A DNA stretch of 64,000 nt, taken from positions 558,001 to 622,000 of the forward strand of contig OZ024766.1 in the NCBI GenBank assembly GCA_964016885.1, read 5' to 3'. The position numbers were made by a program, and so were the translations under genes. Position 1 is the first letter of the stretch. Every line of letters begins with the position of its first letter. The stretch comes from Eledone cirrhosa. Lineage: Eukaryota. Below are positions 12,433 to 50,335 of the stretch, piece after piece. The notes below the pieces were generated by a model, which had not been told where the DNA came from, ran no database searches, and saw only the letters and a program-made list of their open reading frames with translations.

Positions 12433-12796
12433 TATAGACATGTATGTATGCAAAAGGGAAACAGAATCAACAAAGCAAACAACACACTATATACATTATC
12501 ATGAGTGTATATATGTTCGTGTGTTTGATGTATAAACATATGTATATGTACACACCAACAGCAACAATGCTTTCAAGGACATTTACACACACACACACAC
12601 ACATATATATATGTATATATATATATGTAACGGTTATATTTAATTTCTTGGGATACAACAAGCAAAATATTTTTATAACTGATATAAAGCACTCAACAGT
12701 TTAGTGGAGTAAATATACTATCCAGGAGATTACAACCAGAATGGTTGCATTTTTTCAGGGTATGTCAATATTTATTTATAAAACTAACCTATATTA

Positions 12797-12862
12797 TATT
12801 TTATCTGATGAAAGTGCACCATAGTTTGCCTTGGTGGCCCTTGAAATATGTATAATGAAATA
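12797..12862 (+). ncRNA. Type I hammerhead ribozyme motif, intact core
   Basis: TATTTTAT-CTGATGA-aagtgcacca..tggtggccctt-GAAA-TATGT-ATA^ATGAAATA: 8-bp stem I, stem II cacca/tggtg, near-palindromic short stem III and AUA cleavage triplet. Confidence 0.8.
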
Positions 12863-13692
12863 AATATGGTTTTATAAATATAGTTTCCATTTGTTAATAT
12901 ATTGTATATGTATATATATATGTGAGTATATATATGTGTATATTTTATATATATATATATATATATATATATATATATATATATATATATATATATATAT
13001 ATAACAAAGGAATTGTGGTAAGGAACCAGATGGACCATAACGCACCAGAGTACTCAAGACTTAGGGTAGTAGAGTGGGAAATAGGAAAAAGTATGACCCC
13101 GACGGCAGAGCTCAAGCCGTTTCGACGGCTATTTCTGGACTCCAGAAATAGCCGTCGAAACGGCTTGAGCTCTGCCGTCGGGGTCATACTTTTTCCTATA
13201 TATATATCATCATCATCATCATCATTGTTTAACGTCCATCTTCCACGCTTGCATGGGTTTGGACGCCATATATATATATATATATATATATATATACATA
13301 TATATATGTATATATATATATATATATATATAATGTACACATAGACACAAATAAACACATATATATATCATCATCATCATCATCATCACTGTTTGATGTC
13401 TATTTTTCCACACTTGCATGACTTGTCAGGTTGTTGTGTTATGAGACAATTCATGTCAGGTAATCATATCTCGTTCATCCAGAACTGGTTCTGGCAGGTT
13501 TTCTACGGCTGGATGCCCTTCCTGACACCAACCACGTTTGCAGGGTGGAACTGGGAACTTTTTTATCACGGCACCAGCATTCCCATTTTACAGGGTGGAC
13601 TGGCATGCAAACTTTAACCTACAGTTAGTAGGCATCTCTTAACCCAATACACACCCCACCCCACACACGCTACTCCGTCCTCTCATTTCCGT

Positions 13693-15345
13693 CCACTATA
13701 AAGTGGTCATGTAGGTGTCACGACAAAAAGTACCCAGTCCACACTGTAAAGTGGTCATGTTGGTGTCACAACAAAAAGTACCCAGTCCACACTGTAAAGT
13801 GGTCATGTAGGTGTCACAACAAAAGACACCCAGTCCACACTGTAAAGTGGTCATGTAGGTGTCACAACAAAAAGCACCCAGTCCACACTGTAAAGTGGTC
13901 ATGTTGGTGTCACAACAAAAAGTACCCAGTCCACACTGTAAAGTGGTCATGTTGGTGTCACAACAAAAAGTACCCAGTCCACACTGTAAAGTGGTCATGT
14001 AGGTGTCACAACAAAAGACACCCAGTCCACACTGTAAAGTGGTCATGTAGGTGTCACAACAAAAAGCACCCAGTCCACACTGTAAAGTGGTCATGTTGGT
14101 GTCACAACAAAAAGTACCCAGTCCACACTGTAAAGTGGTCATGTAGGTGTCACAACAAAAAGTACCCAGTCCACACTGTAAAGTGGTCATGTAGGTGTCA
14201 CAACAAAAAGCATCCAGTCCACACTGTAAAGTGGTCATGTAGGTGTCACGACAAATAGCACCCAGTCCACACTGTAAAGTGGTCATGTAGGTGTCACAAC
14301 AAAAAGCACCCAGTCCACACTGTAAAGTGGTCATGTTGGTGTCACAACAAAAAGCACCCAGTCCACACTGTAAAGTGGTCATGTTGGTGTCACGACAAAT
14401 AGCACCCAGTCCACACTGTAAAGTGGTCATGTAGGTGTCACAACAAAAAGCACCCAGTCCACACTGTAAAGTGGTCATGTAGGTGTCACAACAAAAAGCA
14501 TCCAGTCCACACTGTAAAGTGGTCATGTAGGTGTCACGACAAATAGCACCCAGTCCACACTGTAAAGTGGTCATGTAGGTGTCACAACAAAAAGCACCCA
14601 GTCCACACTGTAAAGTGGTATTGTAGGTGTCACAACAAAAAGTACCCAGTCCACACTGTAAAGTGGTCATGTTGGTGTCACAACAAAAAGCACCCAGTCC
14701 ACACTGTAAAGTGGTCATGTAGGTGTCACAACAAACAACACCCAGTCCACACTGTAAAGTGGTCATGTAGGTGTCACAACAAAAAGCACCCAGTCCACAC
14801 TGTAAAGTGGTCATGTAGGTGTCACAACAAAAAGCATCCAGTCCACACTGTAAAGTGGTCATGTAGGTGTCACGACAAATAGCACCCAGTCCACACTGTA
14901 AAGTGGTCATGTAGGTGTCACAACAAAAAGCACCCAGTCCACACTGTAAAGTGGTCATGTAGGTGTCACAACAAAAAGCACCCAGTCCACACTGTAAAGT
15001 GGTCATGTTGGTGTCACAACAAAAAGCACCCAGTCCACACTGTAAAGTGGTCATGTAGATATCACAACAAAAAGCTCCCAGTCCACACTGTAAAGTGGTC
15101 ATGTAAGTGTCACAACAAACAACACCCAGTCCACTCTGTAAAGTGGTCATGGAGGTGTCATAACAAAAAACACCCAGTCCCACACTATAAATGTGGTTGG
15201 TGTTAGGAAGGGCTTCCAGCTGTAGAAAACCTGCCAGAGACAGTCCTATACGAGCGAGACACGGTCACCCGACCAACCTTGCCCCAAGTGGGACAACTTC
15301 AGTCTAACCCATGCTAGCGTGGAAGATAGACGATGATGATGATGA
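13693..15345 (+). repeat. 48-bp minisatellite (about 31 units) ending in a SINE tail
   Basis: Reverse complement of the 5338 unit. Confidence 0.95.
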
Positions 15346-15514
15346 TAATTATGATATATATATATGTATGTATGTATATATATATATACATATATATATA
15401 TATGGGGAGGGTCATATTTGTATAATAATATTGCCAGAATTAATAATAGAACACACTCACTGTTTGGTTGGTTTTTGTATGTGTGTGGGTGTCCCTGTGT
15501 GTATGTAATGTATG

Positions 15515-16500
15515 TCTGTATATATATATATATATATATATATATGTATATATATATATGTATATATGTATGTGTGTATATATATGTAAGTATATATATA
15601 TATGTATGTATATATATGTATGTATATATATATGTATATATATATATACATATATATATATATATATGTATATATATATACATATATATATATATATATA
15701 TATATATATATATATATATGTATATATATATGTATGTATATATATATATATATATATATATATATATATATATATATACATACATATATATATACATATA
15801 TATATATATATATATATATATACATATATATATATATACATATATATATATATATACATATATATATATATATACATATATATATATATATATATATATA
15901 TATACATACATATATATATATATACATACATATATATATATATATATACATATATATATATATATATACATATATATATATATATATATATACATATATA
16001 TATATATATATATACATACATATATATATATATATATATATATATATATATATATATATACATACATATATATATATATATATATATATATATACATATA
16101 TATATATGTATGTATATATATATATATATATATATATATATATACATATATATATATGTATATATATATGTATGTATATATATATATACATATATATATA
16201 TATATATATATACATATATATATATGCATATATATATATATATATATATACATATATATATATATACATATATATATACATATATATATATATACATATA
16301 TATATATATATATATATATATATATATATATATATATGTATATATATATATATACATATATATATATATACATATATATATATATACATATATATATATA
16401 TACATATATATATATATATATATATATATATATATACATACATATATATATATACATATATATATATATATATACACACACATACACACATACACCCCAC
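15515..16500. repeat. Compound (TA)n microsatellite, about 1 kb
   Basis: Direct inspection. Similar tracts lie at 4061-4692, 8970-9160, 11083-11420 and 46840-47455. Confidence 0.95.
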
Positions 16501-16712
16501 CCCCACACACACACATAGAGGTGTGTTATGTATTGACAGGTGCAAGACCAATACAAGTTTCTACCTGTGAGTAACCAATAGTGATTGAGAAATCAAAGTA
16601 AATATTGACCAATGATTAATGATTATTGATTATTGATTCCGTGTGGTGTTCATCAATACACTGCCCTTGAAAAATGGGTGAACATCACGTAGGGAGGATT
16701 GGTGTCACGTCT

Positions 16713-48500: not shown

Positions 48501-48762
48501 TCTATCTATCCATCTCACTCACTTCTCCCATATACAATATATCAGGAGCTATAACAACTGCTGCCAGTGTCCGAGCAGCCTTCACTTCACGCCGGTACTC
48601 TGACAGTTCGTTCGTTGCGCGCTCTCTCTCTCTCCACGTATTATATATATAGATACACACACACATATATAAATACACACACATATATACACACATATAA
48701 ACACACACACATACACCCACACTCAGCCCTAGCCCAGACGACCGCCACCACATCACGCAGCT

Positions 48763-48855
48763 ATGGCAGACGACGACACAGAAGTCCCCACCGTCGATGA
48801 CATGATGAAGGCCGCTTCCAAAGCCATTGGGATGCCATTGAGACCAAAATTCCAG
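48763..48855 (+). CDS. Probable first coding exon of an unidentified gene (MADDDTEVPTVDDMMKAASKAIGMPLRPKFQ)
   Basis: gctATGG start context, 31 non-repetitive codons and a CAG|gtaaac phase-0 donor, preceded by a CpG-rich unique leader (48560-48760). No downstream exon was recognised in the window. Confidence 0.55.
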
Positions 48856-48919
48856 GTAAACAAAAAAAAAATATAAACACACCAGCATCTATTTCTCGCG
48901 TTACTTCGTTTCAGGCGGC

Positions 48920-49625
48920 CGTGGCCATACTGGGGCACTGTTTTAGTTAATCAGTGCTGGGGCACTGCCTGGGTTTAATTAATAGTGTTGTGGCCATACT
49001 TGGGCACTGCCTTGGTTTAGTTAATAGTGTTGTGGCCATACTGGGGCACTGCCTTGGTTTAGTTAATAGTGTTGTGGCCATACTGGGGCACTGTTTTAGT
49101 TAATCAGTGCTGGGGCACTGCCTTGGTTTAATTAATCAGTGTTGTGGCCATACTGGGGCACTGCCTTGGTTTAATTAATCAGTGTTGTGGCCATACTGGG
49201 GCACTGCCTTGGTTTAGTTAATAGTGTTGTGGCCATACTGGGGCACTGTTTTAGTTAATCAGTGCTGGGGCACTGCTGCCTTCGTTTAATTAATCATTGT
49301 GGCCATACTGGGGCACTGCCTTGGTTTAATTAATCAGTGTTGTGGCCATACTGGGGCGCTGTTTTAGTTAATCAGTGCTGGGGCCATACTGGGGCACTGC
49401 CTTGGTTTAATTAATAGTGTTGTGGCCATACTGGGGCACTGCCTTGGTTTAATTAATCAGTGTTGTGGCCATACTGGGGCACTGCCTTGGTTTAATTAAT
49501 CAGTGTTGTGGTCATACTGGGGCACTGCCTTGGTTTAGTTGACCATTGCTGTGGTCATACTGGGGCACTGCCTTGGTTTAATTAATCAGTGTTGTGGCCA
49601 TACTGGGGCAAATCCTTGGTTTAGT
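48920..49625 (-). repeat. About 40-bp tandem repeat, reverse complement of the 40620 motif
   Basis: Unit tgtggccatactggggcactgccttggtttaattaatcagtgt. Confidence 0.9.
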
Positions 49626-49903
49626 CGACCATATCGGGCCCCAATACTTATTTCTTCCAAGTCTTACTTGTTTTATCGATTTCTAGCTTGCCGAACCGCT
49701 AAGTAGAGGTATGTAAACTGACAGCTGGACATAAACGTAAATATAGACACTAAGACAGAAACACGTATGTATATGTGTATATATATATATATTTATATAC
49801 ATATACATACGTGTTTCTGTCTTAGTGTCTATATATATGTGTGTGTATATATATATATATATATATATATATATATATATATACATACTTACATCTTTAT
49901 ATA

Positions 49904-49953
49904 ACAGGCTGAATAAGTGAGGATGTATAACCCAACGAAACTTGCGAACCTGT
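49904..49953 (+). ncRNA. Decayed hammerhead motif
   Basis: ACAGG-CTGAATA-...-GAAAC-TTGC-GAA-CCTGT: the 5-bp stem I is perfect, but there are two core substitutions (G8 and U16.1). Confidence 0.5.
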
Positions 49954-50335
49954 ACATGCTACTGTTGTAACTAATTATATATATATATATATATGTGTGT
50001 ATGTATATATATATATATATGTGTGTATGTATATACATATATATGTGAGTATGTATATATATATGTATTCATCTTATTAAGGTTAAGAAGCGAGTCTTGT
50101 CACACCCAATCGTTAAGCACCTTGCCCTCAACCCAACTGAGTTTATTTCCTCATAACTTTCTTAATAAATAAAATTTTACACAGATACTTTTTATAAAGT
50201 GTAGAATATAAATAAGCTGATGAATATTTTCAAACAAAATTAATTAAAATTATTTTTTTATATATTAATTATTGCACAGAGTTTCGTTCGTTGGTGTTTC
50301 CGTTAACTAAATATTTTCTGTCTGTTTGTAGTTTA

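Follow-up and report, generated by a model that had tools for sequence, protein, structure and literature searches.

Among Penelope-like elements (PLEs), the Hydra clade has been defined by RW, DKT, CxCX5C, CxxC and CxH protein motifs together with canonical hammerheads and (TA)n targets, and the Naiads by an N-terminal endonuclease and no canonical hammerhead, as given in the available text of PMC8557442. The same text lists Hydra-1_Obim from Octopus bimaculoides, the hammerhead of which differs from the TATTTTAT clan treated here, and already describes PLE copies that have a tail at just one of their ends and truncated partners in inverted orientation. According to the accessible part of PMC4209133, most PLE hammerheads are single truncated copies or opposite-strand pairs 100-700 bp apart. 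For an anole PLE, the available sections of PMC11167929 report that both target strands are cut and extended, that two reverse transcriptase (RT) start sites set the tail, that RNA left uncut serves as the principal template, and that the hammerhead, which needs protein for cleavage, is dispensable for insertion in vitro. Here we analysed a 64,000-nucleotide stretch of the Eledone cirrhosa genome (contig OZ024766.1, positions 558,001 to 622,000; hereafter the window) over which hammerhead motifs are dispersed. We conclude that these motifs are, in all likelihood, the type-I hammerheads of the pseudo-long terminal repeats (pLTRs) of several coding PLE families, mainly of the Hydra clade, and that their hosts are the extreme 3' ends of such elements, likely derived from abortive reverse transcription into (TA)n.

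Both strands were scanned with a descriptor made of CUGANGA, a stem II of at least 3 bp, GAAA, a stem III of at least 2 bp, UH and a stem I. Eight sites were obtained with a stem I of at least 2 bp and seven with at least 4 bp, as compared with means of 0.1 (maximum 2) and 0.01 (maximum 1), respectively, in 100 block-wise dinucleotide shuffles of the window, so that the motif frequency exceeds that of shuffled controls. An earlier reading of the sequence (the original prediction) had placed 12 hammerhead sites in the window, and all eight descriptor-positive sites fall among these, with the CUGANGA, GAAA and UH core and helices I-III present. Named after C3 of the core, they are 12805+, 21319-, 33595-, 39089+, 39410+, 25937+, 38952- and 21601-. 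Two of them had been written off as decayed, namely 38952- (7-bp stem I, 8-bp stem II) and 21601- (4-bp stem I, 6-bp stem II), and both fit the descriptor. Two others, 40136+ and 49904+, were rightly called decayed: their cores are broken and they are 84-90% identical over 31-45 nt to hammerhead-bearing repeat families elsewhere, and are therefore decayed copies. The last two sites found no support, since 40326+ fails the descriptor and has no homologue in the retrieved loci, and the site given at 24572 (24653-) has three homologues without a hammerhead core; the region 24520-24700 (-) is a piece of a dispersed repeat. The descriptor scan confirmed that five motifs (12805+, 21319-, 33595-, 39089+ and 39410+), which we call the TATTTTAT clan, share the TATTTTAT 5' strand of stem I, a palindromic stem III (ATATGTAT twice, ATATATAT twice and ATGCGCAT) and an AUA triplet. 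Their contiguous stem I is 8 bp long in three cases but reduced to 4 bp at 33595 and to 5 bp at 39410. The 25937+ motif is of the minimal type, with a 2-bp stem I. The ends that carry these motifs are as follows.

12622..12905, plus strand: family A' Hydra-clade PLE end, 86.9% identical to the 3' end of the copy L098, which bears an open reading frame (ORF); inverted tail at about 12622-12722, followed by a 3' end truncated on its 5' side; the hammerhead spans 12797-12862 and its cut is predicted after 12854 (AUA).
21122..21397, minus strand: family A PLE end with a direct-orientation tail; hammerhead 21263-21327, predicted cut 21271.
21429..21770, minus strand: family E PLE end with an inverted arm (21668-21770); hammerhead 21563-21605, predicted cut 21567.
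25773..26058, plus strand: family G Neptune-like PLE end, 99.3% identical to L193; minimal hammerhead 25935-25966, predicted cut after 25964 (GUC).
33398..33695, minus strand: family A PLE end with a tail and a short 5' fold-back (33629-33695), 94.4% identical to L098; hammerhead about 33542-33603, stem I down to 4 bp, predicted cut 33546.
38867..38998, minus strand: family F end of a Hydra-clade PLE, linked to an ORF in L311, L312 and L329 and accompanied by a short piece of inverted tail; hammerhead 38898-38959, predicted cut 38905 (GUA).
39016..39186, plus strand: family B Hydra-clade PLE end that matches the 3' pLTR of the full-length L035 element at 90.6% identity; the hammerhead spans 39081-39151, its cut is predicted after 39143, and it lies on the sense strand of RPL37 intron 1.
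39298..39564, plus strand: family C end of a Hydra-clade PLE, made up of an inverted tail (39298-39397), a body (39395-39505) and a fold-back (39514-39564); its degraded hammerhead spans 39402-39459, has its predicted cut after 39454 and lies on the sense strand of RPL37 intron 1.
40127..40165, plus strand: decayed minimal hammerhead with an altered GAAA box and an intact-family relative.
49904..49975, plus strand: decayed copy from another hammerhead-bearing repeat family, 84% identical over 45 nt to L269, L147 and L210.

Coding parents were found in further stretches drawn from the same 3.0-Gb assembly, which carry L numbers. By family, the eight motifs belong to four Hydra-clade families (A including A', B, C and F), one Neptune-like family (G) and one other (E). 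L035 holds a complete family-B element, in which 1.1-kb direct repeats, each with a hammerhead, flank a 798-aa ORF (808-codon open frame) encoding RT plus, at the C-terminus, a GIY-YIG domain, the two hammerheads lying 3.7 kb apart. This element with a hammerhead in both pLTRs, together with the links in L098 and L109, bears out the predicted connection to PLEs. Two more open family-B frames of 808-809 codons lie in L110 and L111, and a hammerhead follows 799-1040 nt downstream on the same strand in 25 of the 30 top GIY-YIG matches of this family. Full-length copies have the hammerhead about 240-270 nt before the ATG and 0.9-1.9 kb past the stop of the RT + GIY-YIG ORF; family by family, it stands 0.2-1.9 kb downstream of the family's own GIY-YIG ORF and/or about 240-430 nt upstream of the ORF start. 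Pfam returned no family in the 798-aa ORF at E<=0.1.

Family A (12805, 21319, 33595) shows same-strand GIY-YIG remains about 1.4 kb upstream in 8 of 30 loci (L071, L073, L074, L077, L088, L089, L094 and L095), a hammerhead 243 nt before the ATG in L109, and 84-94% identity of the window copies to L098. The 12805 subfamily (A') gave 240 exact matches; 21 of 30 copies extend upstream into a longer 3' untranslated region (UTR), and 2 of 30 reach GIY-YIG remains within 1.5 kb. For family C (39410), GIY-YIG stands 1.6-1.9 kb upstream in 2 of 17 stretches, with a third, possible, case at 3.4 kb; L034 was rejected as its autonomous parent, a TA tract lying between its hammerhead and its ORF. Family F (38952) is linked to an ORF in 3 of 30 loci, in that about 270 nt separate the hammerhead of L311 and L312 from the ORF start that follows it, and in L329 the ORF lies upstream. 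Families A, C and F retain broken but colinear RT + C-terminal GIY-YIG frames. The family E (21601) hammerhead lies 207 nt after a C-terminal-GIY-YIG ORF in L207, whose CX2-5CxxC-type linker would suit a parent of Neptune/Nematis type. ORF pieces of family G (25937) in L193 and L194 match by eye the Neptune lines of the alignment of Craig et al. 2021 (PMC8557442); all 40 scored matches, copies in L173-L194 included, are 100% identical over 181 nt, which marks this family as very young and probably active very recently. Each family's hammerhead being tied to its own GIY-YIG ORF, and the A' copies extending upstream, the hosts do not appear as the separate non-autonomous families that had been proposed. 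Outside these families, L196:1787-4447 (+) contains an apparently intact PLE frame that is open over 887 codons and belongs to another clade (RT, C-terminal GIY-YIG, DKG).

Clade calls were made from motifs and by-eye comparison with the cut text of Craig's supplement, rather than from a tree of reference sequences. The family-B protein P0001 contains HSDKTNNLY, RRLRWI, CNCPVKNKC and CNLC..E..N..CLH, and the L203 protein of a further family, H, contains SSDKTKNVY, RIRWRA, CNCLNKEAC and CDLC..E..N..CMH. In both, which are the families read for these motifs, DKG is replaced by DKT, and of the N-terminal RWK the RW is present and the K inexact; both P0001 and L203 have a CxCX5C linker, no CCHH, and CxxC and CxH around a conserved E and N. 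A canonical pLTR hammerhead and insertion into (TA)n complete the Hydra profile, with a TA tract in 30 of 30 copies. The 3.7 kb of L035 exceeds the 3 kb below which Hydra elements 'generally' stay in the source, a size which is therefore a tendency and not a definition.

Family H is represented in the window by one relic.

22889..23937, plus strand: relic of a broken Hydra-clade PLE of family H (RT core, thumb, C-terminal GIY-YIG).

The relic, 80-82% identical to a Hydra family with intact ORFs (L203 and L204; 758-759 codons), has its RT core at 22890-23370 followed by GIY-YIG at about 23680-23760, the latter matched by Pfam only below threshold. It had been described as Naiad-like; we assign it to the Hydra clade because the GIY-YIG is C-terminal, after the RT, and the family has DKT and CxCX5C. 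A Naiad identity was rejected, as the endonuclease is C-terminal and the family bears a hammerhead. The relic retains neither a 3' pLTR nor a hammerhead. In its family the hammerhead precedes the ORF in two loci, L203 and L204, and follows 1.5 kb downstream in a third, L205, and this type, which differs from those of the window copies, occurs nowhere in the 64-kb window; the relic is therefore not an evident mobiliser of these copies, the role originally suggested for it.

The anatomy of the copies was then read from matches to a strict pattern for the TATTTTAT clan. In the first 30 strict matches, all 30 reach a TA tract within 215 nt of the core, mostly at about +100 or +190, in line with the (TA)n boundaries originally noted. 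Measured downstream from the core, copies stop at two fixed 3' points, one at about 100-107 nt (short ends) and the other at about 190-197 nt (tail ends): family B counts 35 short, 17 tail and 2 other ends, and family A 40, 20 and 1. Inverted insertions combine one tail and one short arm in 12 of 14 cases for family B and 17 of 18 for family A, hence in 29 of 32 classifiable events (four further inverted events are unclassifiable), as compared with a fraction of 0.44 expected under independence. In the window, the copies at 12805, 39410, 38952 and 21601 consist of a short body and an inverted tail. The 5' ends of family B range from -26 to -480 in 18 unbiased copies. These features also bear on a reading of the motifs as chance matches in AT- or repeat-rich DNA, or as inverted repeats of DNA transposons at TA sites, like miniature inverted-repeat transposable elements. 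The window is indeed rich in AT and microsatellites and many copies are paired in inverted orientation, but shuffles yield only about 0.1 motif per window and about 1 per 590 kb, the reversed strict pattern has no match in the genome, the arms are unequal (a tail on one) and variable in length, and coding parents such as L035 encode RT and GIY-YIG and no transposase, so that we consider this explanation refuted and next to impossible.

Such ends could be produced as follows. The element endonuclease would nick both strands of a TA tract, and cDNA synthesis primed by each nicked strand would begin at one of two start sites that lie about 90 nt from each other on the element RNA. Extension would mostly abort early (in family A, frequently where a hairpin is predicted immediately 5' of the hammerhead), after which the two cDNAs would be joined into an inverted insertion. 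The hammerhead, sitting 50-140 nt upstream of the start sites, would be copied along with the ends, and would thus be amplified because it adjoins the RT start sites. Every short copy spans the predicted cut site, and the template must therefore have been uncut or re-ligated there. From published motifs, cleavage is predicted to be weak as a monomer and better as a dimer (through the palindrome) or with the element protein; it would take place mainly on tandem full-length transcripts, solo copies being probably mostly silent passengers. The genomic signature, two fixed 3' ends with one of each per inverted insertion, fits the two in-vitro RT start sites of another clade, and intact Hydra-clade ORFs are available for testing the priming model.

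To compare structures, 112 distinct TATTTTAT-clan copies were taken from the retrieved loci, a sample which is not unbiased. Stem I is paired in 107-111 of the 112 copies at each position. In stem II, 105-108 copies pair at positions 1-3 and 5-6, where A-U/G-C exchanges occur, and position 4 has a C.Y mismatch, with pairing in 2 of 112 copies. The stem III palindrome alternates between ATAT, ATGT and GCGC. In a 15-sequence alignment, 95.6% of cells pair, with two-sided changes at 8 of 20 pairs, as compared with 39-54% in slid controls; the alignment contains related sequences, and its shuffle control is therefore not a probability. This covariation indicates that the three stem II types, thought to be unrelated, are homologous variants with 3 bp, the C.Y mismatch and a longer helix in common as well as compensatory changes. 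The palindromes of the TATTTTAT motifs are predicted to self-pair at -2.2 to -10.5 kcal/mol. The predicted energies fit a dimer or protein-assisted mode, activity itself being a prediction, and the likeness to short-helix-III hammerheads, which work as dimers according to the literature, had been drawn correctly.

Several observations weigh against our interpretation. Intact ORFs were found only in families B and H, those of A, C, F, E and G being broken or partial. In 11 of 14 unbiased copies of family A the 5' end falls between -67 and -84, a pattern that re-mobilisation of a short unit would produce as well; the cluster coincides with a predicted hairpin of -14.1 kcal/mol, an explanation that rests on fold prediction. 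As to the ribozyme, the base of stem II in the 112 clan copies is A-U in 88 and G-U in 16, and the usual G-C in 4; the predicted active fold of the monomer lies 4.5-8.7 kcal/mol above the minimum in all five TATTTTAT motifs; and six of the eight window motifs fold no better than shuffles (|z|<1).

The 5' cluster of family A would suit short units (above all in family A, about 190-280 nt) that are true non-autonomous derivatives, similar to short interspersed nuclear elements (SINEs) and re-mobilised in trans by Hydra-clade proteins. Besides this cluster, own ORF remains lie within 1.5 kb in only 3 of the first 30 strict-pattern loci (L016, L017 and L025; the ORF in L018 belongs to a neighbouring element and not to the family of its hammerhead), tail-bearing copies include both start sites, and tandem retrozyme-type hammerhead arrays do occur elsewhere in the genome. 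However, the short copies contain only autonomous 3'-end sequence at 84-94% identity, most copies (21 of 30) of the window's A' subfamily extend upstream, 5' ends and inverted pieces vary from copy to copy, and no window motif sits in a tandem array. We therefore regard re-mobilised short units as decidedly unlikely, and retain truncated 3' ends of coding elements.

Whether these ends still cleave is a separate matter. The motifs may be structural relics serving in element-protein binding or positioning, or hitch-hikers, non-cleaving in vivo, a possibility that we hold to be real although the less likely one. The available text of PMC11167929 reports that hammerhead mutants of the anole PLE left in-vitro insertion intact and that no RNA-seq reads end at the cut site, minimal PLE hammerheads cut poorly even as dimers (accessible part of PMC4209133), the predicted folds of the window motifs are weak, and a ribosomal-protein gene tolerates two sense copies in its inferred intron 1. 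Nevertheless, families with proteins of only about 40-60% identity, and different PLE clades, have kept the core boxes, UH, the three helices and the palindrome, and the anole motif does cut with protein, as stated in the available text of PMC11167929. This genome would allow a well-powered test of what PLE hammerheads do, for example of sense-strand intronic depletion.

Genome-wide, the strict pattern gave 21,054 + 20,747 = 41,801 exact matches, as compared with 0 for the reversed control. A relaxed version, which frees N7, loop III and H17, gave 45,850 matches, of which 41,801 (91%) keep the RYRY palindrome, Y7 and A17 (AUA) unforced. A loose core pattern was discarded as a genome-wide count, its numbers being strand-skewed and its control large. 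The total load was estimated from 59 evenly spaced stretches of 10 kb (590 kb): 32 of the 59 contain 88 descriptor motifs together, each of eight shuffles 0-2. Scaling leads to about 0.44 million motifs (bootstrap over stretches 0.28-0.63 million), or to 0.33 million (0.23-0.45) after subtraction of 22 tandem-array motifs; the sample may overestimate, since it holds 13 strict matches as compared with 8.2 expected, and the ratio-corrected load is about 0.28 million. The eight motifs per 64 kb of the window are therefore typical of the genome, and the very large ribozyme load originally proposed is upheld for predicted ribozymes. At least 12 further hammerhead families with other stems occur in the same sample (L211-L269), many as inverted pairs.

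The accessible part of PMC7229834 gives 126,247 hammerhead motifs for axolotl, a genome of 28 Gb (available text of bioRxiv 10.64898/2026.07.22.740005), and that of PMC4209133 about 2,000-9,000 minimal motifs per genome for Schistosoma, coelacanth and Xenopus. The density found here, about one motif per 7 kb, is about 30 times that of axolotl, a rough figure as descriptors differ between studies. Our search of the literature on octopus and cephalopod hammerheads found no octopus ribozyme census, most subscription papers being outside its coverage, and the words 'ribozyme' and 'hammerhead' are absent from the main text of a 2026 Octopus vulgaris repeat paper. It is unlikely, though somewhat less so than re-mobilised short units, that all of the following hold: that the load (about 0.4 million) is beyond any found in print, that nearly identical sense-strand copies in introns, with compatible palindromes and of the kind represented by the two in RPL37 intron 1, suffice for a real genome-wide burden of pre-mRNA cleavage assisted by dimers or protein, and that tail and short arms are a natural record of two-strand priming. 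If true, that record could be used to settle how PLEs insert. What is new is the families and the unusual scale, the kind of element, its hammerhead and TA targeting being already known. The scale is useful in itself, with tens of thousands of exact-pattern copies, largely missed by Rfam, and intact and apparently young PLE families.

Concerning Rfam, the 150 window matches listed, out of 444, include no hammerhead, and none of all 19 matches in 38850-40500 is a hammerhead; the matches are low-complexity noise of microRNA type and a tRNA-like SINE head. Among the matches listed, no window motif reaches the gathering score of Hammerhead_1. A genome search with RF00163, in which 74 of about 415,510 rough candidates were scored and which is not a count, gave 18 above the cut-off, none in the window.

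Tandem arrays were observed elsewhere in the genome. Head-to-tail arrays of 310-311 bp, with a type-I hammerhead per unit and the palindrome ACGCGT, lie at L270:887-5254, L212:3650-4580 and L216:9335-9955; in L270 (C1:1239001-1247000), eight consecutive array units have one and the same sequence, and two arrays are in divergent orientation. Judged from their sequence, these arrays fit the description of non-LTR retrozymes, and their stem II resembles that of the family-H PLE hammerhead. L251:279-9567 (C28:110000001-110010000) is a retrozyme-like array with a period of about 422 bp, 15 descriptor-positive hammerheads and the palindrome ACTAGT, solo copies of whose motif occur in L128, L178 and L207.

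Three of the window motifs lie within a host gene.

37092..41210, plus strand: host gene RPL37, with an inferred ATG exon at 37092-37094, an exon at 39966-40103 and the next exon from 41127.

The exon at 39966-40103 encodes ribosomal protein L37e (Pfam Ribosomal_L37e, E=1.2e-22). The first exon is likely the ATG followed by GT at 37092-37100, with GT/AG boundaries read from the sequence, and the inferred intron 1 contains three hammerheads, two sense and one antisense. An effect on the RPL37 transcript is doubtful, because one motif is degraded and the palindromes are mismatched; by inspection, a heterodimer of the two sense motifs is unlikely as their palindromes differ (GCGC and ATAT). Intron 2 holds the decayed motif 40136 and a weak C/D small nucleolar RNA-like match at 40321-40388 (E about 1).

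The surroundings are rich in microsatellites, tandem repeats, a tRNA-headed SINE and pieces of long interspersed nuclear elements. The SINE is abundant (39570-39920 and about ten other places, e.g. 20900-21130 and 25220-25580), and its mid part forms 48-49-bp tandem arrays at 5332-6134, 6542-8531 and 13694-15197. A further short repeat (12967-13140, 26055-26215, 33200-33375, 5005-5175 and 20625-20780) is bounded by TA and has inverted pieces as well as an internal palindrome; it often directly adjoins PLE ends, and no hammerhead core was detected in it. The tandem-repeat and ORF lists of about 56500-58780 recur at 60150-62420, offset by 3646 bases, which suggests an exact local duplication or an assembly artefact.

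Compared with known systems, the elements share with Hydra-clade PLEs a single ORF with RT and C-terminal GIY-YIG, the RW, DKT, CxCX5C, CxxC and CxH motifs, a type-I hammerhead near the 3' end, (TA)n targets, and truncated and inverted copies; family F moreover has the same ACCA-N-TGGT stem III as Hydra-1_Obim. They differ in longer UTRs (a unit of about 3.7 kb versus <3 kb), in tens of thousands of copies, and in a long stem II whose first pair is A-U or G-U and in which a C.Y mismatch is conserved, and the TATTTTAT hammerhead string is absent from the available text of the Craig et al. 2021 supplement (PMC8557442). The tail, about 85-90 nt, also exceeds the 30-40 bp described for PLEs. Naiads are similar in (TA)n targeting and in inverted and truncated copies, but their N-terminal GIY-YIG and lack of a hammerhead do not hold here. 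As for the minimal hammerheads of metazoan PLEs described in the accessible part of PMC4209133, the likeness extends to the pLTR location, mostly single truncated copies, opposite-strand pairs, a palindromic helix III and many families per genome, and the 25937 motif is of their textbook type. In contrast, those number about 2,000-9,000 per genome versus 41,801 here for one strict pattern, and in the TATTTTAT clan stem I measures 8 bp, with both G10.1-C11.1 and the extra base that follows position 9 missing. Non-LTR retrozymes, as presented in the available text of PMC7229834 and bioRxiv 10.64898/2026.07.22.740005, also combine PLE ancestry with type-I hammerheads, a short helix III and non-coding units a few hundred bases in length; however, they are head-to-tail units able to yield circular RNA, whereas the window motifs are solo or inverted ends of coding elements, none of them in a tandem array and with coding parents of the same sequence present. 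Finally, PAc, a Poseidon-clade PLE of Anolis (available text of PMC11167929), resembles the present elements in two fixed 3' ends that define a tail, in AT-rich targets and in a hammerhead upstream of the RT start sites, and differs in that its start sites lie within the ORF a few bases apart, whereas here they would lie in the 5' UTR, about 90 nt apart as deduced from genomic ends.

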